A stretch of DNA of 37,716 bases, taken from the IMG/VR virus record IMGVR_UViG_643692022_000005; one strand, given 5' to 3'. Made by a program: the position numbers and the translations under genes. This document shows, piece after piece, positions 3,885 to 19,478 of the stretch. The notes beneath the pieces were generated by a model. That model saw nothing but the letters and a program-made list of their open reading frames with translations, ran no database searches and was not told where the DNA came from. How positions within the stretch are numbered: the first letter of the stretch is position 1; the number at the start of each line of letters is the position of its first letter. The stretch comes from a virus (lineage: Duplodnaviria; Heunggongvirae; Uroviricota; Caudoviricetes).

Positions 3885-4247
3885 TTAACGACCTGCTGCG
3901 CGGAGTTTTCCGTCAGGTTCACCGGCAAGAGTCAGTAACTGTCCCTGGTCTTCCTGCAGAATAGTCAGGCGACCACCGCGATTGACATACATCGGCGTTT
4001 CGGTGGTGTCTTCTTCGGAAATTTTCCCGCGGTTAGTCGGGCGAACATATGAGAGTTTGTGTTTGATTTTCACTCGGTTCTCATCAAACGGTTCGATTTC
4101 CAGGTTGAGCGAGACCTTACCTTTGGTTTTCGTGTTCATCACACCGGAAGCGACTTCACTGAGAACTGCGCCGATTTTGGTTTCAAATACGCCGCCGTCC
4201 AGCTCCCCGATAAATGCCTGCACATCAGTACTGCGTTCGCTAGCCAT
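3885..4247 (-). CDS. Hypothetical phage early protein
   Basis: Start at the internal Met (MASERSTDVQAFIGELDGG) preceded by GAGGAG at 9-nt spacing. The longer track ORF (to 4565) runs through a structured non-coding region and is not credible as coding. Confidence 0.65.
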   Translation of the reverse strand: MASERSTDVQAFIGELDGGVFETKIGAVLSEVASGVMNTKTKGKVSLNLEIEPFDENRVKIKHKLSYVRPTNRGKISEEDTTETPMYVNRGGRLTILQEDQGQLLTLAGEPDGKLRAAGR

Positions 4248-4295
4248 TTTGCTGCTCCTCATCATATCGACCCTGCAAGGTCGGTTAGTTTCTCC

Positions 4296-4384
4296 ACAAA
4301 ACAGAGAAGAACACCTGCGGTGACTGCCGCCCGGATGGATTGGGTTATGAGCCCGTCGTCCGGTGATGCTCTTCTCTGTTTTGT
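4296..4384. repeat. Long perfect inverted repeat (15-bp arms, 59-nt spacer) forming a large stem-loop
   Basis: 4296-4310 ACAAAACAGAGAAGA pairs perfectly with 4370-4384 TCTTCTCTGTTTTGT. By my estimate a 15-bp inverted repeat within 100 nt is expected about 0.003 times by chance in a window this size. Confidence 0.7.
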
Positions 4385-4648
4385 AAAAAGGACGGTACCA
4401 GCCGGAAGCAAGGGTACAAACTGGTACCGCCAGGACTACACACAGCATAAAGTTGTGGTGCCGGGTGCCTCCCGGTGCCTGGCGAAGGTTGCACACCAGA
4501 CGGGTGGGTATCCACAGAAGGTCGACTGTCAGCCTCAACCTTAACCCGCGTGCGCTGAGCCGCATTCACCACAACGCTAAGAATTCTCTCTGGTTGAAAA
4601 TACTTAGCTGTTATGTGCCTGCTTTTAGCCACATCAGGCGAGGTGGAC

Positions 4649-4715: not shown

Positions 4716-5150
4716 ATGTCCGGTAATATCTATACGCTGTACAAATCCCACTGTGAAAATGTTGGAAAGTATCGGGGCATTGAAATCAGTGGGGTAGTGT
4801 CATCAGTCGAAATAAGCAAAGTTGAATCAAGGGCAACATTACTTACTCTTCTGGACCTTGTCTTACATGAGCACCGGAAGAAATTCGGCACTCCCTATAA
4901 TCAGTTGAATGGGAAAAAGGCTCTGGTTCACCTTATTCTGATGAAGCATCACTGGATGCCAAAACAGATTAATGAGATGAAATTTGATGAACTTCTTCTT
5001 TCAATTCAGGATGAACTCACACTTGATAAAATAAGCGTAACCGCCCAGAAATTTTTAGATTATCGAGACTGGAGATCACAAATTCATCACTTTGATGATT
5101 TTGACGAAAATGAATGGGATCCTAATTTGTCTGCACAATATCTAAAGTAA
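4716..5150 (+). CDS. Hypothetical protein (AT-rich cargo gene)
   Basis: 144-aa ORF in AT-rich DNA, where a long ORF is unlikely by chance; purine-rich RBS-like stretch (AAAAGGAAAAG) upstream. No recognised motif. Opposite strand to the flanking early operon. Confidence 0.6.
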   Translation: MSGNIYTLYKSHCENVGKYRGIEISGVVSSVEISKVESRATLLTLLDLVLHEHRKKFGTPYNQLNGKKALVHLILMKHHWMPKQINEMKFDELLLSIQDELTLDKISVTAQKFLDYRDWRSQIHHFDDFDENEWDPNLSAQYLK

Positions 5151-13081: not shown

Positions 13082-13444
13082 ATGCGTGATATTCAGATGG
13101 TTCTGGATCGTTGGGGAGCATGGGCGGCGAGTGATAGTTCTGGAGTAGACTATTCTCCTATAGCTGCTGGGTTTAAAGGGCTTCTTCCCTATACAAGCAA
13201 AACACGTCAGGCTTGTTCAGATAGTGATGCATTAATTATTGAAGGTTGTCTTGCTCTTCTTAAGAAGAGAAAACCGTATGAGCACTCTCTGATTGTGGCT
13301 CATTACCTGTATGGCATCTCGAAAAGGAAGATAGCAAAAGCATACAAAAAAGATGAGAAATTGATACGTATAGAGATACAGTTGGCTGAAGGGTTTATAG
13401 ATGGTTGTCTCTCGATGCTGGATATTCGTTTAGAAATGGAGTAA
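13082..13444 (+). CDS. Antitermination protein Q-like
   Basis: Starts MRDIQMVLDRWGAWAA, an N-terminus typical of short Q-family antiterminators; GGAG RBS; sits upstream of the lysis cassette. Confidence 0.7.
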   Translation: MRDIQMVLDRWGAWAASDSSGVDYSPIAAGFKGLLPYTSKTRQACSDSDALIIEGCLALLKKRKPYEHSLIVAHYLYGISKRKIAKAYKKDEKLIRIEIQLAEGFIDGCLSMLDIRLEME

Positions 13445-13454
13445 TAAAATTAAG

Positions 13455-13485
13455 GCAGCAACATAGAGTTTAACTTTGTTGCTGC
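13455..13485 (-). terminator. Terminator hairpin at the 3-prime end of the HNH cargo gene
   Basis: 9-bp stem GCAGCAACA/TGTTGCTGC with a 13-nt loop; on the minus strand it is followed by a U-rich run (CUUAAUUUUAUU). Confidence 0.5.
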
Positions 13486-13494
13486 GTAACAGAT

Positions 13495-14241
13495 TTAATC
13501 TGGCATTATGGTAGATAATTGTGGGCTAGGTTTAACCCCGTAGGTTTCTGATATTCTTTTAACGTTGATACCTACGATTTTTCTGACAGCTCCCAACGAA
13601 AATTCTAACTCTTTAATCCCTGCGTCTTTAGAAGTGTTGTTCATATAATAACGGCATGCTTCTCGAATTGACTTGCAAACGATAAATAGAGGTGATTCAT
13701 CTGGGATTTGAGAAAGCAAAGAGGTCAAACATGTTCTTAACTCTTTGAGTGATTCGGCAACAAAACAGGGGTTTTCAAGATGATATTCTACGAACAAAGC
13801 CCCTTTATCATCCAATTCATTTATAATCTTTTTTGCCAGATTTCTTTCATCATGCTGTTGAATATATTTCAAAGCATCGAAGGTAATATTAATCGAACCT
13901 TCAAGACAGGAGCTTATAAGGCTTTCATGATCTTTTTTCCATTTTCTTAATACAGGTGCCGGATAGTCTAGCCCCTGATTCTTATCTATTAATACAGAAC
14001 AAGTAGCACACAGCCATATGCCATTGTTAATTGACTTCCTTTCTGTTTCTGATTGTGACATGTCATAGCGTGGGCCATCAGGAGATGCTGCACATATGTG
14101 AGCAGCAACTCCTGTCTTGATTGATTTATTGCCATCAATTGATGGGCCAATGGTCAATCTGGGGCATGAAGGGTTTGAACAAATGAATGCTGCCCGCTCT
14201 GCTAATTTTTTTATAGTGTCTTTAGAAAAATTATGTCGCAT
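13495..14241 (-). CDS. HNH-motif nuclease-domain protein with uncharacterised C-terminal domain (cargo gene; candidate defence)
   Basis: N-terminal HNH pattern CSNPSC ... AAHICAASPDGPRY ... NGIWLCATCSVLID; the ~150-aa C-terminal half has no motif I recognise. AT-rich, opposite strand to the surrounding late genes. Confidence 0.7.
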   Translation of the reverse strand: MRHNFSKDTIKKLAERAAFICSNPSCPRLTIGPSIDGNKSIKTGVAAHICAASPDGPRYDMSQSETERKSINNGIWLCATCSVLIDKNQGLDYPAPVLRKWKKDHESLISSCLEGSINITFDALKYIQQHDERNLAKKIINELDDKGALFVEYHLENPCFVAESLKELRTCLTSLLSQIPDESPLFIVCKSIREACRYYMNNTSKDAGIKELEFSLGAVRKIVGINVKRISETYGVKPSPQLSTIMPD

Positions 14242-14333
14242 GTAGTGAACCCAATATATGAGAAAAATATTACTAACGCGGTCCGCATTTTATCATGTAA
14301 TGTGTTAAGAGTGGTTACTTCGCCACACAGCTT

Positions 14334-14507: not shown

Positions 14508-14834
14508 ATGCCTCATAACCCAAATACCTGGTTGGAGTTGGTCCAGAGCTGGTGGCGTGGAGACACACCGCTGGGCGCAGTGATTATGTCGATTGTTATG
14601 GCTGGCTTGCGCATTGCATATTTTGGCGGTGGTGGGGGCTGGAAACGAAAAACGCTCGAGATTTTGCTCTGTGGTGCTCTGACGCTGACTTTTGCATCCG
14701 CTCTTGAGTATGTCGGATGGCCTAAATCTCTTTCTGTTGCCATTGGTGGTGGCGTTGGGTTGATCGGTGTCGATGCTATTCGTGGGGCTGCAATGAGAGT
14801 AATCGGTAATAAGTTTGGTGGTTCTAAGGAGTAA
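14508..14834 (+). CDS. Holin
   Basis: 108-aa protein with hydrophobic segments and a charged C-terminal tail, immediately upstream of the endolysin. Confidence 0.75.
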   Translation: MPHNPNTWLELVQSWWRGDTPLGAVIMSIVMAGLRIAYFGGGGGWKRKTLEILLCGALTLTFASALEYVGWPKSLSVAIGGGVGLIGVDAIRGAAMRVIGNKFGGSKE

Positions 14835-14837
14835 TTT

Positions 14838-15314
14838 ATGCAGGTGCTAAATCCCCAGCGTAAAGCTTTCCTTGATATGGTGGCTTGGTCAGAAGGAACG
14901 GATAACGGGCGACAAGCGACACGTAATCACGGTTATGATGTTATTGTTGGCGGCGAACTGTTTACTGATTACTCTGATCACCCTCGCAAACTTGTCACGT
15001 TAAACCCCAAACTCAAATCAACAGCCGCCGGACGTTATCAGCTTCTTTCACGCTGGTGGGATGCTTACCGTAAACAGCTTGGTTTGAAAGACTTCTCCCC
15101 CAAAAGCCAGGACGCAGTGGCATTGCAGCAGATTAAAGAGCGTGGCGCTTTACCGATGATTGATCGCGGTGATATCCGTCAGGCTATCGATCGTTGCAGC
15201 AATATCTGGGCGTCGTTACCTGGTGCAGGTTACGGTCAGTATGAACATAAAATCGGTGACCTGATTTCCCGGTTTAAAGAGGCTGGTGGGGTGGTAAATG
15301 AAGTTGAGCTATAA
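14838..15314 (+). CDS. R: Endolysin, lambda R-type lytic transglycosylase
   Basis: Near-identical over most of its length to phage lambda R as I recall it (QRKAFLDMVAWSEGTDNGRQATRNHGYDVIVGGELFTDYSDHPRKLVTLNPKLKS...). Confidence 0.92.
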   Translation: MQVLNPQRKAFLDMVAWSEGTDNGRQATRNHGYDVIVGGELFTDYSDHPRKLVTLNPKLKSTAAGRYQLLSRWWDAYRKQLGLKDFSPKSQDAVALQQIKERGALPMIDRGDIRQAIDRCSNIWASLPGAGYGQYEHKIGDLISRFKEAGGVVNEVEL

Positions 15315-15690
15315 GCTGGTTATCGCTGCATTCTTCTTTACTGTCATCGGTTCTTTCATCTGGTCTGCCAACCACTACTACAGCAAATATCAGCACGAAA
15401 AGAAACGTGCTGATGAGGCTGTACAAAATGTTGAATCTGCAACAGCCATTACCCGTAACGTCCTGCAATCACTGCAAATCGTCAATACAGTTATAGAGGT
15501 TAACCAGCATGCAAAACAGCAGATCGCACTGGAGTCACAGAGAACCCAGGAAGATATCAAAGTGGCTGTTGCGGATGATGATTGTGCTTCACGTCCTGTG
15601 CCTGCTGCCGCTGCTGACCGGTTGCGGAAATTCGCGAACGGTTTACGTGAGCGCTCCGGTGGCACCACTGCCAGCCAGCCTGACTTCTGA
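15298..15690 (+). CDS. Rz: Rz-like inner-membrane spanin
   Basis: N-terminal transmembrane segment then a charged, predicted coiled-coil periplasmic region; directly follows the endolysin. Confidence 0.75.
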   Translation: MKLSYKLVIAAFFFTVIGSFIWSANHYYSKYQHEKKRADEAVQNVESATAITRNVLQSLQIVNTVIEVNQHAKQQIALESQRTQEDIKVAVADDDCASRPVPAAAADRLRKFANGLRERSGGTTASQPDF

Positions 15691-15847
15691 TACTCCTGTA
15701 CCGTTTATACCCAATCCGCTGACGTATGGTACCAGTCTGGAGTTGAATGTTGCTCTATTGTCAGCCTTGGGACAATGTAATTTTGATAAAACTGGAATCA
15801 GAAAGATTGAATCACGGCGCGCTATTTTGCATTCGAAAGACAAATAG
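15575..15847 (+). CDS. Rz1: Rz1-like outer-membrane lipoprotein spanin (overlapped arrangement)
   Basis: In the +1 frame inside Rz, starting MMIVLHVLCLLPLLTGC (lipobox LLTGC), Pro-rich mature part; extends past the Rz stop. Confidence 0.65.
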   Translation: MMIVLHVLCLLPLLTGCGNSRTVYVSAPVAPLPASLTSDTPVPFIPNPLTYGTSLELNVALLSALGQCNFDKTGIRKIESRRAILHSKDK

Positions 15848-16212
15848 CTCGAGTTATATTTTTCATTATCAGTGCGAATGCGCCTAATAAAGCTGTGTAT
15901 TATGATAATTTTATAAAACTTATGGGCTTAAATTCAGACGCCAGCGTTTTTATAGTGTAATGTAGCAGCTTACATAAAATATGCATCGTGATTAACTATT
16001 AGTCCAACCTTTTGGACCAATATGAAAGTGGAAGTTTGTACAAATCGTTTGTAGATGATTAAACATGTGTCTAGTAGAGCTAGTCATGAACAGGTTTATT
16101 ACGTATCATTTTGTTTAGATTATCGAGAGTACAACTAGTAGAGCAGCTAATCTTTAGATAGTGCCAGTGATGTTCACTTACGATAAACTAACCTTTTCAT
16201 TCAGTGGAGGTT

Positions 16213-16650
16213 ATGATGTGGCATACATTACTTAACTGGCCTTGGGGAACTGTGTGGTCAGCTGTATCGGCTTTAGGTTCAATTGTAACTGTTACATTAG
16301 GTTTTTGGGCAATGAATGTTTGGCGGCGACAGGAGGCTCTGAAGGCCAAAATGGCTCTGAAAATGGCAGTGGCTGATTATTCAAATGCATTATCACAGCT
16401 ACCTTTATCTCTTAGTCGTAATGTTCGTATTGAAAAAAGGGCCGAGCTACGAGAGTTAAGCCATAAATTAAATGCTATTAATAATGCTTTTTTGATATGC
16501 GAACATATGTTGGAAAAATACCCACGTGTAAACAGCGGTTGTCGTTCTTTATCTGTTGCCCACAAAGAATATATTAGAATGAGAGATAATAGTATTCAGG
16601 CGAAATATATTTGTCAGAATATTCTTTCAGAACAGTTTGTATTCAAATGA
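16213..16650 (+). CDS. Hypothetical single-pass membrane protein (AT-rich cargo gene)
   Basis: GGAGG RBS; one hydrophobic helix (WSAVSALGSIVTVTLGFWAMNVW) then a charged domain. AT-rich island between lysis and packaging genes. Confidence 0.6.
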   Translation: MMWHTLLNWPWGTVWSAVSALGSIVTVTLGFWAMNVWRRQEALKAKMALKMAVADYSNALSQLPLSLSRNVRIEKRAELRELSHKLNAINNAFLICEHMLEKYPRVNSGCRSLSVAHKEYIRMRDNSIQAKYICQNILSEQFVFK

Positions 16651-16708
16651 AAATGAACGATTGGCATTTACTTGCCGTTTATTCATTGGATTGAAAAGTC
16701 TATTTAGC

Positions 16709-16728
16709 AAACCGTGTTAAAGCGGTTT
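16709..16728 (+). terminator. Weak hairpin after the membrane cargo gene
   Basis: 6-bp stem AAACCG/CGGTTT with 8-nt loop; the following T-run is poor. Confidence 0.3.
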
Positions 16729-16777
16729 CTGATTGCAGTTATGGTTAGATATTTAACGAAAACTACAGGGATAATAG

Positions 16778-17128
16778 ATGCCTCCACGAACCCCAAAAGC
16801 CTGCCGCGTTCGCGGCTGCCGCCATACCACGACTGACCCATCAGGCTACTGCGAAAGCCACAAAAGCGAAGGCTGGAAGCAATACAAGTCTGGCCAGTCC
16901 CGTCATCAGCGCGGTTATGGTTCGAAGTGGGACGTTATCCGCGCGCGTGTGCTGAAGCGTGACAAAGGCCTGTGCCAGTTGTGCCTGCGTGCCGGTGTGG
17001 TGCGCGAGGCGAAAACCGTTGACCACATCATCCCTAAAGCGCATGGCGGCACCGATGCAGACAGTAACCTACAGAGTCTGTGCTGGCCGTGTCATAAGGC
17101 GAAGACGGCCCGTGAACGGATTAAGTAA
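16778..17128 (+). CDS. HNH endonuclease (packaging-associated)
   Basis: 116 aa with CxxC...H...N...CxxCH motifs (CQLCLRAG...DHIIPKAHGGTDADSNLQSLCWPCHKAK), directly upstream of the terminase small subunit as in HK97-type phages. Confidence 0.8.
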   Translation: MPPRTPKACRVRGCRHTTTDPSGYCESHKSEGWKQYKSGQSRHQRGYGSKWDVIRARVLKRDKGLCQLCLRAGVVREAKTVDHIIPKAHGGTDADSNLQSLCWPCHKAKTARERIK

Positions 17129-17136
17129 GAACCAGT

Positions 17137-17218
17137 TCCCTCTGCCAGAGGGGAGGGGCGGGTCAAATCCCTGTGACCTGACGTCTTCCGGACTGCCCGC
17201 CCCATCGTTTTTTTATAC
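17137..17218. other. Structured GC-rich region between HNH and terminase genes (candidate cos/packaging site or terminator)
   Basis: Hairpin CCCTC...GAGGG at 17139-17153 and long-range stem GGGGCGGG (17156-17163) / CCCGCCCC (17197-17204), followed by TTTTTTTA. Confidence 0.3.
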
Positions 17219-17253
17219 CCGCGAAAAATGAAATTTAACCAGGAGTGCCGCAT

Positions 17254-17748
17254 ATGGCTGGAACGGCGGGGCGTTCCGGGCGTCGCCCCAAGCCAACGGC
17301 GCGCAAGGTGCTGGCCGGAAACCCCGGCAAGCGAGCCCTGAACAAAGATGAACCTGTTTTTACGCCCATCAAAGGTGTTGAGCCACCGGAGTGGTTCGCT
17401 GAAGAAGATCTCCCTCTCGCCACGATCATGTGGCAACTGACAACCAAAGAACTCTGCGGTCAGGGCCTGCTGTGCGTGACTGACCTCGCGGTGCTTGAGC
17501 GGTGGTGCGTGGCCTACGAGTTCTGGCGACGTGCCGTGAAAAATATTGCCAGACAGGGCAACACCATCACCGGTGCAATGGGCGGTATGGTCAAAAATCC
17601 GGAGCTGACCGCCAAAAAAGAACAGGAGTCCGAGATGAGCAGTACGGGGGCAATGCTCGGACTCGACCCCAGCAGCCGCCAGCGTCTGATTGGCCTGGCG
17701 GGGAAGAAGAAAGCCACTAACCCGTTTCTGAAAATCATCGAATCATGA
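17254..17748 (+). CDS. Terminase small subunit (P27-family-like)
   Basis: Starts [14 protein letters not shown]...GNPGKRALN, typical of P27-family small terminases; AGGAG RBS 8 nt upstream. Confidence 0.8.
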
Positions 17749-19478
17749 GCCGGAAATCTTACCCCAACGTAAATGCTGCCAATCAGTATGCCCGGGATGT
17801 CGTGCGCGGAAAGATTGTGGCCTGCCAGTTTGTGATTCAGGCCTGCCAGCGCCATCTTGATGACCTGATGGCGGAAAAAAGTAAGTCGTTTCGTTACCGC
17901 TTCGACAAGGACTTGGCTGAACGGGCCGCCAAATTTATTCAGCTGTTGCCGCACACCAAGGGTGAGTGGGCATTCAAGAGGATGCCCATCACGCTGGAGC
18001 CGTGGCAGCTCTTTGTGATCTGCTGCGCGTTTGGCTGGGTCAATAAAGGCTCCCGGCTGCGCCGCTTCCGGGAGGTGTATACCGAAATCCCCCGTAAGAA
18101 CGGCAAATCAGCAATCTCTGCCGGTGTCGCCCTGTATTGTTTTGCCTGTGATAACGAGTTCGGCGCGGAAGTGTATTCCGGTGCCACGACGGAGAAACAG
18201 GCATGGGAAGTCTTTCGTCCGGCAAGACTGATGTGTAAACGCACACCCATGCTGACGGAAGCGTTCGGGATTGAGGTTAACGCCTCAAACATGAATCGTC
18301 CGGAGGATGGCGCGCGGTTTGAACCGCTGATCGGTAACCCCGGTGATGGTTCATCACCCCACTGTGCGGTGGTGGATGAATATCACGAGCACGCCACCGA
18401 TGCGCTTTACACCACGATGCTTACCGGGATGGGGGCGCGACGTCAGCCACTGATGTGGGCCATTACTACTGCCGGGTACAACATTGAGGGGCCGTGCTAC
18501 GACAAGCGACGGGAAGTTATCGAGATGCTCAACGGGTCGGTACCCAACGATGAACTGTTCGGGATCATCTATACCGTTGACGAAGGCGATGACTGGACCG
18601 ACCCGCAGGTGCTGGAAAAAGCTAACCCGAATATTGGCGTGTCGGTTTATCGCGAATTTTTGTTAAGTCAGCAGCAGCGTGCGAAAAATAACGCCCGTCT
18701 GGCAAACGTCTTTAAAACAAAACACCTCAATATCTGGGTGTCGGCGCGTTCGGCGTATTTCAACCTGGTGAGCTGGCAGAGCTGCGAGGATAAATCACTG
18801 ACCCTTGAGCAGTTCGAGGGGCAGCCGTGCATTCTGGCCTTTGACCTGGCGCGTAAGCTGGATATGAACAGCATGGCGCGACTTTATACCCGCGAGATTG
18901 ACGGTAAAACGCATTACTACAGTGTGGCCCCGCGTTTCTGGGTACCGTATGACACGGTGTACAGCGTCGAGAAAAATGAAGATCGACGGACAGCCGAACG
19001 CTTTCAGAAATGGGTGGAAATGGGCGTTCTGACCGTTACCGATGGTGCGGAGGTGGATTATCGCTACATCCTCGAGGAGGCCAAAGCGGCGAACAAAATC
19101 AGCCCGGTCAGTGAGTCACCCATCGACCCCTTCGGGGCGACCGGGTTGTCACATGACCTTGCTGATGAAGACCTGAACCCCATCACTATCATTCAGAACT
19201 ACACCAACATGTCCGACCCGATGAAAGAGCTGGAAGCGGCAATTGAATCGGGGCGCTTTCATCATGATGGCAATCCCATCATGACCTGGTGTATCGGCAA
19301 CGTGGTCGGCAAAACCATTCCGGGTAACGATGATGTGGTGAAGCCCGTCAAAGAGCAGGCGGAAAACAAAATCGATGGTGCAGTTGCGCTGATTATGGCG
19401 GTTGGCAGAGCCATGCTGTACGAGAAAGAAGACACGCTGTCTGACCACATTGAGTCCTATGGGATCCGCTCGCTTTAA
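17745..19478 (+). CDS. Terminase large subunit
   Basis: 577 aa with Walker-A-like GKS ([11 protein letters not shown]) and a C-terminal nuclease region; overlaps the small subunit stop. Confidence 0.88.

Follow-up and report, generated by a model that had tools for sequence, protein, structure and literature searches.

A paired Shine-Dalgarno leader with an abutting -10-like element on a moron gene in the late region of an HK97-like Escherichia coli prophage

Morons are the places in which temperate phages keep the genes that change the phenotype of their host, including anti-phage defenses, and most of them are unannotated. By definition, a moron has its own promoter and terminator and a deviant G+C content, and is expressed from the prophage (PMC3594210). 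One moron in the late operon of phage HK97 encodes gp15, an inner-membrane protein that excludes superinfecting phages (PMC3594210). A second precedent comes from phage T4, in which read-through transcripts of genes e, soc, 49 and I-TevI are silent, with the ribosome-binding site paired, and translation takes place on transcripts from a promoter located in the 5' strand of that structure (PMC3014915). Here we analyze a moron in viral record IMGVR_UViG_643692022_000005 (Caudoviricetes), a stretch of 37,716 nucleotides (hereafter the window) that is the late region of an HK97-like E. coli prophage; on its plus strand, the lysis genes are followed by an AT-rich island and then by the packaging genes. 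The main new observation concerns the leader of the one gene in this island, in which the Shine-Dalgarno (SD) sequence is predicted to be sequestered in a hairpin with a -10-like element abutting its 5' arm. Such a design bears on a rarely asked question, namely the lysogen specificity of a co-oriented gene inside a strongly transcribed late operon.

The island spans positions 15848-16777 (930 bp), between the stop codon of lysC/Rz1 (15845-15847) and the ATG of an HNH endonuclease gene (16778). Its borders were set by alignment with an empty site in E. coli EC7, in which 26 bp separate the lysC stop codon from the HNH ATG, and with three sites holding other cargo: two minus-strand hypothetical genes in one, a small gene and a DUF2513 gene in another, and a gene for a 184-aa hypothetical protein in the third. 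The island is an insertion into a variable cargo slot of this HK97-like prophage. The G+C content is 0.33-0.40 across 15750-16800, as compared to about 0.5 in the upstream lysis genes and 0.55-0.60 in the downstream packaging genes. Judged by the Juhala/Hendrix definition of a moron, this is extra DNA that collinear relatives lack (the EC7 site) or replace with other cargo, and its base composition deviates from that of its flanks. We conclude that it is a genuine, cleanly delimited moron holding one real gene, and that the family of membrane-anchored proteins to which this gene belongs is uncharacterized. A first-pass annotation, made from the letters of the window, had described a 930-bp AT-rich island between lysis and packaging genes and had read it as an accessory gene inserted where phage lambda has bor. 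Both statements hold up: the alignment makes the borders exact, and the empty or otherwise filled slot, the AT-richness and the purifying selection described below agree with an inserted accessory gene.

This island is carried by 28 of 5426 complete E. coli genomes. A 2-kb junction query was matched in some part by 1323 of the same genomes and was covered to at least 80% in only 27. Blastn searches with the island and with its 368-nt upstream part found no match among 50,697 phage records, and the upstream stretch is therefore without detectable relatives there. The 184-aa cargo mentioned above, from E. coli 2017.20.01CC, is distantly related to the window protein within the same family, PHROG 6169 (hhalign probability 99.9%, E = 8e-32), so the slot accommodates both unrelated genes and divergent alleles of a single family. 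The island is also bracketed by a 15-nt inverted repeat, with one arm within lysC (AACTGGAATCAGAAA, 15790-15804) and the other near the right end of the island (TTTCTGATTGCAGTT, 16726-16740). The arms are complementary at 14 of 15 positions, and the rough chance expectation for a region of this size is about 0.03.

The gene runs from 16216 to 16650 on the plus strand and encodes a bitopic membrane protein of 144 amino acids (RefSeq WP_016159276.1, hypothetical protein). Ratios of nonsynonymous to synonymous substitution (dN/dS) against relatives are 0.14-0.40, indicating purifying selection and thus a real coding gene. A single-pass protein of 146 aa had been proposed here by the first-pass annotation; the open reading frame and its N-terminal hydrophobic segment stand, but the start is the ATG at 16216. 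The ATG at 16213 reads ATT in four relatives (loci L011, L014, L017 and L018), the family consensus starts with MW, and the RefSeq start is also at 16216. The match to the PHROG 6169 profile is full-length (E = 1.1e-56), with residues 4-145 falling on profile positions 2-164 of 165.

Directly 5' of this start codon lies a hairpin (16189-16213, plus strand) whose 5' arm is an anti-SD sequence (UAACCUUU, 16189-16196) and whose 3' arm (GGAGGUUA, 16206-16213) contains the SD, GGAGG at 16206-16210. An anti-SD/SD hairpin in this position is common to divergent members of the family (for example, AACCUCCUU-N5-AAGGAGGUU). In the window leader the SD is paired with a probability of 0.96, and the median of this probability is 0.96 in 48 distinct family leaders versus 0.60 in controls, which were 328 strong-SD genes from the same loci (Mann-Whitney p = 1e-11; the leaders are phylogenetically related and this was ignored, making the P values optimistic). 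The arm pairs differ by class, reading CACCUC/GAGGUG, UCACC/GGUGA, UCUCCUU/AAGGAGA, CUCACU/AGUGAG or AUCCUUU/AAAGGAU, and sliding the 3' partner reduces the pairing from 79% to 39-65%. Furthermore, the window and locus L022 share 80% identity over the 40-nt leader, despite the fact that 64% of the synonymous sites of the gene differ. SD sequestration is thus a feature under selection across the family. The leaders of lambda lom and bor show no such sequestration. RNAalifold predicted no consensus structure from 24 leaders, probably because the loop lengths vary.

The second conserved feature of the leader is a -10-like hexamer at the 5' arm. In the window this is TAAACT (16184-16189, plus strand), which abuts the anti-SD arm and, together with a weak -35-like GTGCCA at 16161-16166 (17-bp spacer), agrees with the consensus at 8/12. 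Of 30 non-redundant leaders, 24 have a -10-like hexamer (TAAAAT, TAGAAT, TACAAT, TATAAT) that stops 0-6 nt (mode 2) short of the anti-SD core on its 5' side. Local 12-nt shuffles gave 10.2 +/- 2.5 of 30, with a maximum of 20 in 5000, and the rate of hexamers found at 7-25 nt predicts 31% (P = 6e-8). Over its six positions the hexamer has T in 22/24, A in 24/24, any base, A in 24/24, A in 18/24 and T in 24/24, which is a composition of the sigma-70 -10 type. The enrichment of the -10-like hexamer at the 5' arm is positional, and a transcription start 7 nt downstream of the hexamer would fall at or after the anti-SD core. At the other end of the gene, 12 nt after the stop codon, is a weak terminator-like hairpin with a 5-bp stem and a T-rich tail (16662-16687, plus strand); canonical intrinsic terminators occupy the same relative position in many family members. 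With regard to the promoter and terminator expected of a moron, then, the window has a weak candidate for a proximal promoter and a weak candidate for a terminator, and the family as a whole shows the enriched hexamer.

The model that we favor, with a probability of roughly one half, is that of a moron expressed in the lysogen, with translationally silent late read-through transcripts and a product that excludes phages at the inner membrane. The island, which sits between lysC/Rz1 and the HNH/terminase genes, would have been acquired horizontally as a self-contained expression cassette. Transcripts from its own promoter (hexamer at 16184-16189) would begin within or after the anti-SD arm, leaving the ribosome-binding site free and allowing protein synthesis in the lysogen. 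Late-operon transcripts entering by read-through from the lysis genes upstream would contain the complete hairpin and would be translationally silent, so that the protein would not be made during the phage's own lytic growth. In this way the hairpin may restrict production to the dormant prophage; both the transcription start site and the lysogen-specific translation are what we infer from the arrangement of the leader. The protein would then act in the lysogen, on the cytoplasmic side of the inner membrane, where it would exclude or abort superinfecting phages, as does HK97 gp15.

Several observations weigh against this model. The proximal TAAACT site was not flagged by a promoter scan, which did find a more distal sigma-70-like promoter, TAGTCA-17-TATCAT (16081-16109, plus strand; 9/12), with a -10 hexamer, TATCAT, that is conserved in L017 and L018; a transcript from this distal promoter would hold the whole hairpin. 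In the most distant class of leaders (L082-L086), the only good -10 (TGTGATAAT) is about 17 nt upstream of the hairpin, so this class does not fit the promoter position seen in the 24 leaders. At some loci TAGAATAA overlaps the stop codon of the upstream open reading frame, and GAA..UUC pairing lengthens the stem, which means that conservation of the hexamer could be partly structural or coding. Column-wise covariation in the hairpin, analyzed on a fixed alignment, did not rise above shuffles because both arms are conserved, and the case for the hairpin is therefore built on the pairing probability relative to controls, with its optimistic P values, and on the differing arm sequences. Turning to the protein, the hydropathy of the candidate transmembrane segment is borderline in the window (1.54, see below) and the topology is predicted from the charge pattern. 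Finally, the anti-phage function is proposed by analogy, for a protein with no PADLOC match and no sequence similarity to gp15.

Some of the same observations enter into a rival model, in which the gene encodes a toxic or abortive-infection membrane effector and the hairpin is present in all transcripts, keeping synthesis very low until the leader is opened or processed. Infection, temperature or processing of the RNA could be the trigger, in the manner of type I toxin mRNAs. Family-wide sequestration of the SD is consistent with this model, and hairpin-containing transcripts would come from the distal promoters (16081-16109 in the window; TGnGATAAT in other classes); indeed, there is a second peak of -10-like hexamers 15-17 nt upstream. 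The single-pass protein has conserved small-residue faces in its membrane helix, as might suit such an effector, and the neighboring slot between Q and holin holds defense genes (PDC-M68A-like in the window; KwaA and Abi_alpha in relatives). However, a protein of 144 aa with a folded cytoplasmic domain is unlike the type I toxins, which have fewer than 60 aa. No antisense promoter was found in the island by the promoter scan, the Rfam scan of the island returned nothing, and PADLOC gave no match. The tight coupling of the -10-like hexamer to the 5' arm is left unexplained if the hairpin is meant to be in every transcript. We regard the effector model as rather unlikely.

A conserved 22-nt box, TTCACTGAGTGCCTG(T/C)GATAAT, lies upstream of family genes and contains an extended -10 (TGnGATAAT). 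In related phages the same box also precedes accessory genes outside the family, among them the DUF2513 cargo of the slot discussed here. It was found at L019-L022 (about 4938-4963), L082-L086, L050, L040:1146, L043:1794, L045:1284, L048:1871, L064:1478 and L005 (about 2260-2295), and is degenerate in the window (15/22, about 16153-16174). The box may serve as a promoter or operator common to morons, or else as a recombination linker. The SD of the DUF2513 gene is likewise paired, with an upstream UUCCCU. The leader of HK97 gene 15 (L088 640-706) has its SD, AAGGAGG, fully paired with upstream UUCCUU/CGCUC, and the minimum free energy for -60..+6 is -16.3 kcal/mol. At locus L036 two family genes stand in tandem (4001-4438 and about 4575 onward), the second with its own copy of the leader (…CCAGGGTAGAATAATCTACTTAACTCAAGGAGGTTTTCATG), indicating that the cassette, including the -10-like element, duplicates as a unit.

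A broader version of the favored model is that plus-strand, late-operon morons of enterobacterial lambdoid phages share a portable expression module, consisting of the upstream box (TTCACTGAGTGCCTGYGATAAT), a sigma-70 -10 fused to the anti-SD arm, the SD hairpin and a terminator. Such a module would render its cargo translatable from the prophage's own promoter only, and silent on the massive late read-through transcripts. The design occurs on the PHROG 6169 family and on the unrelated DUF2513 cargo found in this slot, and the HK97 gp15 moron shows part of it. We put this generalization forward tentatively, as possible but on balance unlikely. If it is true, the protein of PHROG 6169 would represent a new anti-phage factor of the inner membrane, one that has to be kept off in the lytic cycle. 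If a promoter does lie in the hairpin as proposed, the arrangement could provide a sequence signature for finding lysogen-expressed genes in the late regions of prophages.

The protein has the features of a membrane anchor at its N-terminus. Residues 1-37 are uncharged and rich in Trp, Ser, Ala, Gly and Thr, and the transmembrane helix (codons 16240-16320, plus strand; about residues 10-36 counted from ATG 16213) is followed by a juxtamembrane motif, W-R-x-Q-E-x-L-K-A-K. The 19-residue Kyte-Doolittle maximum is 1.54 for the window protein and averages 1.94 in the family. There is no lysine or arginine ahead of the helix in the window protein and there are five just after it. Across the family, the N-terminal tails average 0.37 Lys/Arg and 1.2 Asp/Glu, and the 15 residues after the helix average 5.0 Lys/Arg. 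By the positive-inside rule, this charge distribution predicts an N-out/C-in topology, with a short periplasmic N-terminus and the folded domain in the cytoplasm. The most conserved positions in the family are in the membrane helix, the juxtamembrane W-x-x-Q-[ED]-x-L-K-A-K, K50 and E97; W37, Q40 and K50 are nearly invariant across 41 divergent members. AlphaFold2 gives an all-helical model (predicted local distance difference test, pLDDT, 94; predicted template modeling score, pTM, 0.78), in which a confidently modeled four-helix bundle continues from the membrane helix. An earlier model from 16 close homologs was discarded (pLDDT 55).

Neither sequence nor structure names a function for this protein. 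Pfam, NCBIfam, PADLOC and PDB sequence searches, conducted with the single protein and with a 41-member alignment, gave no meaningful match. In PADLOC-DB 2.0 no family reached E <= 1 for the window protein, and matches among the 41 members were single, weak and scattered. No lysis family (holin, antiholin or spanin) was matched in Pfam or PHROGs, where the sole strong PHROG match was PHROG 6169. A profile search of 1.84 billion cluster representatives recovered 66 proteins, nearly all of 137-184 aa, and one of 5.8 billion proteins recovered hypothetical proteins only, with no named function. Literature searches by protein accession or PHROG number found nothing, and Foldseek against viral models returned nothing at E <= 0.001. 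The structure thus yields a generic fold only and the sequence searches yield no functional lead, in line with the first-pass annotation, which saw no motif that it recognized: no known exclusion, defense, lysis or structural protein emerged. Its suggestion of superinfection exclusion or lysogenic conversion was a reasonable guess, and phage exclusion at the inner membrane is probably the function, by analogy with HK97 gp15.

The genomic niche of the family helps in weighing the other functions that might be proposed. Members come from Escherichia, Salmonella, Hafnia, Enterobacter, Serratia and Pantoea, that is from Enterobacterales only, and in every locus examined the gene sits in the late region of a temperate lambdoid phage or prophage, in late-gene orientation. 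Three niches were seen. One is the interval from Rz/Rz1 to HNH. In a member with only about 22% identity, the gene is flanked by Rz and a lambda-type Nu1/gpA terminase, and in Enterobacter phage CobraSix and many relatives it is placed between TerL and portal. CobraSix is temperate, with integrase, excisionase, Q and ninG present. The constant co-orientation with the late operon, usually right after the spanin genes, together with an inner-membrane location like that of holins and antiholins, could indicate a late-expressed lysis or packaging accessory, for example a holin or lysis-timing modulator, for which the hairpin would only tune the level of expression. This role is distinctly unlikely. 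The island is sporadic, with its 28 E. coli genomes compared to the 1323 that match part of the junction query. The slot can be empty or filled with unrelated genes, some on the opposite strand, and the CobraSix-type phages carry the gene far from their lysis genes. The AT-richness of the island, the terminators after many members and the lack of similarity to lysis families in Pfam and PHROGs also argue against it. Last and very unlikely is a host-directed, Bor-like factor of lysogenic conversion (envelope stress, serum resistance or colonization), which has in its favor the genomic position of bor in lambda, the moron architecture and carrier strains from many animal hosts and the environment, but which must contend with a folded domain predicted to be cytoplasmic with only about 10 residues outside, with the lack of a lipobox cysteine in the N-terminal region and of Bor similarity (hhalign probability 0.5%), and with a family found in phage late-region contexts only, to which no source gives a name or a Pfam domain. 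That the folded domain is predicted to lie in the cytoplasm speaks against a surface or serum-resistance role and fits better with the inner-membrane role of the favored model.

Two elements farther upstream in the island, which the first-pass annotation had emphasized as repeated motifs, did not rise above chance in shuffles. The 10-bp direct repeat CTAGTAGAGC does exist, at 16071-16080 and 16135-16144 (the first copy had been placed 2 nt off), and so does the hairpin GTCCAA-CCTT-TTGGAC, at 16002-16017 (1 nt off); both are on the plus strand. Markov shuffling of the 365-nt upstream region produced a 10-mer repeat in 15% of cases, and shuffling of the whole island did so in 57%. The two copies have diverged to ATAGCAGAGT and CTGGTAGGGC in L017/L018, which are 89% identical at the protein level. 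The repeat was therefore rejected as a regulatory site, being at chance level and not conserved. Perfect 6-bp hairpins number two in the 365-nt upstream region versus 0.87 expected (P = 0.24); in the one at 16002, L017/L018 have a single compensatory change (GCCCAA..TTGGGC) and L011/L014 have a mismatch. The conserved signal is instead beside the start codon, in the hairpin at 16189-16213 and the hexamer at 16184-16189, which that annotation had missed.

The genes on either side, all on the plus strand, are as follows: holin (14508-14834), endolysin (14838-15314), Rz (15298-15690) and the lysC/Rz1-type o-spanin (15575-15847; Pfam LysC E = 9e-15, RefSeq coordinates transferred from L001) upstream, and an HNH endonuclease of the HK97-type packaging module (16778-17128; Pfam HNH E = 2e-16, L001 annotation), a P27-family small terminase (17245-17748) and the large terminase (17745-19478) downstream. 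The o-spanin frame begins inside Rz and extends 157 nt beyond its end, and is thus overlapped rather than embedded; because it outruns Rz, the last codon of the o-spanin is the true end of the lysis cassette, and the island starts right there. At 17140-17215, in the gap from HNH to the small terminase, the sequence reads as a long inverted repeat, rich in G+C, with a run of T after it (GGGGCGGG…CCCGCCCC ATCGTTTTTTT). In HK97-type phages this is where the cos site lies. The stretch from the Q-type antiterminator region to holin contains a second AT-rich island (13200-14250, G+C content 0.35-0.38). Within it is a minus-strand open reading frame (13495-14241, 248 aa), antisense to the late operon, whose product matches the PADLOC candidate defense family PDC-M68A (E = 7.5e-27) and also HNH-type CBASS/SAVED effector endonucleases (E = 5e-21). 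In related prophages this Q-holin slot holds other genes, including KwaA and Abi_alpha, and with its varied defense genes it looks like a defense hotspot.

With a confident fold, a fixed niche and alternative alleles in the same slot, the family is a well-delimited candidate for phage-exclusion screens. Its relation to described systems differs from case to case. The window protein shares the full-length profile of PHROG 6169, a family without annotated function, and so membership is silent on mechanism. The resemblance of the bundle to the periplasmic four-helix-bundle sensor domains of NarQ, TorS and 4HB_MCP is one of generic fold (3-14% identity), common also to talin and de novo bundles; moreover, the sensor bundles of histidine kinases and chemoreceptors are periplasmic, whereas that of the window protein is predicted to be cytoplasmic, without a second membrane helix or signaling domain. 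Lambda bor does lie directly after Rz/Rz1, as the first-pass annotation stated, and shares with the window gene this slot ahead of the packaging genes as well as the status of an accessory gene dispensable for lytic growth. Unlike the window gene, bor is read from the opposite strand, and its product is an outer-membrane lipoprotein.

The closer comparisons are with HK97 and T4. HK97 gp15 (YebO-like) has no detectable sequence relationship to the window protein (hhalign probability 0.3%), is only 62 aa as compared to 144 aa, lacks a folded cytoplasmic bundle and is encoded in the tail operon; exclusion has been shown for gp15 and is extended to the window protein by analogy. Nevertheless, each is a small protein whose N-terminus carries a transmembrane helix, and each comes from a moron of an HK97-type late operon, in late-gene orientation and followed by a terminator, which in the window is a weak candidate. 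The SD is fully paired in the leader of gene 15 as in that of the window gene. The T4 genes e, soc, 49 and I-TevI resemble the window gene in having a hairpin at the ribosome-binding site whose 5' arm overlaps or abuts a promoter, a putative one in the window; the mechanism was demonstrated in T4 and is read from sequence in the window. The two arrangements would also differ in timing: in T4 the nearby promoter is late (gp55) and the silent transcripts are early, while in the window the nearby promoter would be of the sigma-70 type, serving the lysogen, and the silent transcripts would be the late ones.

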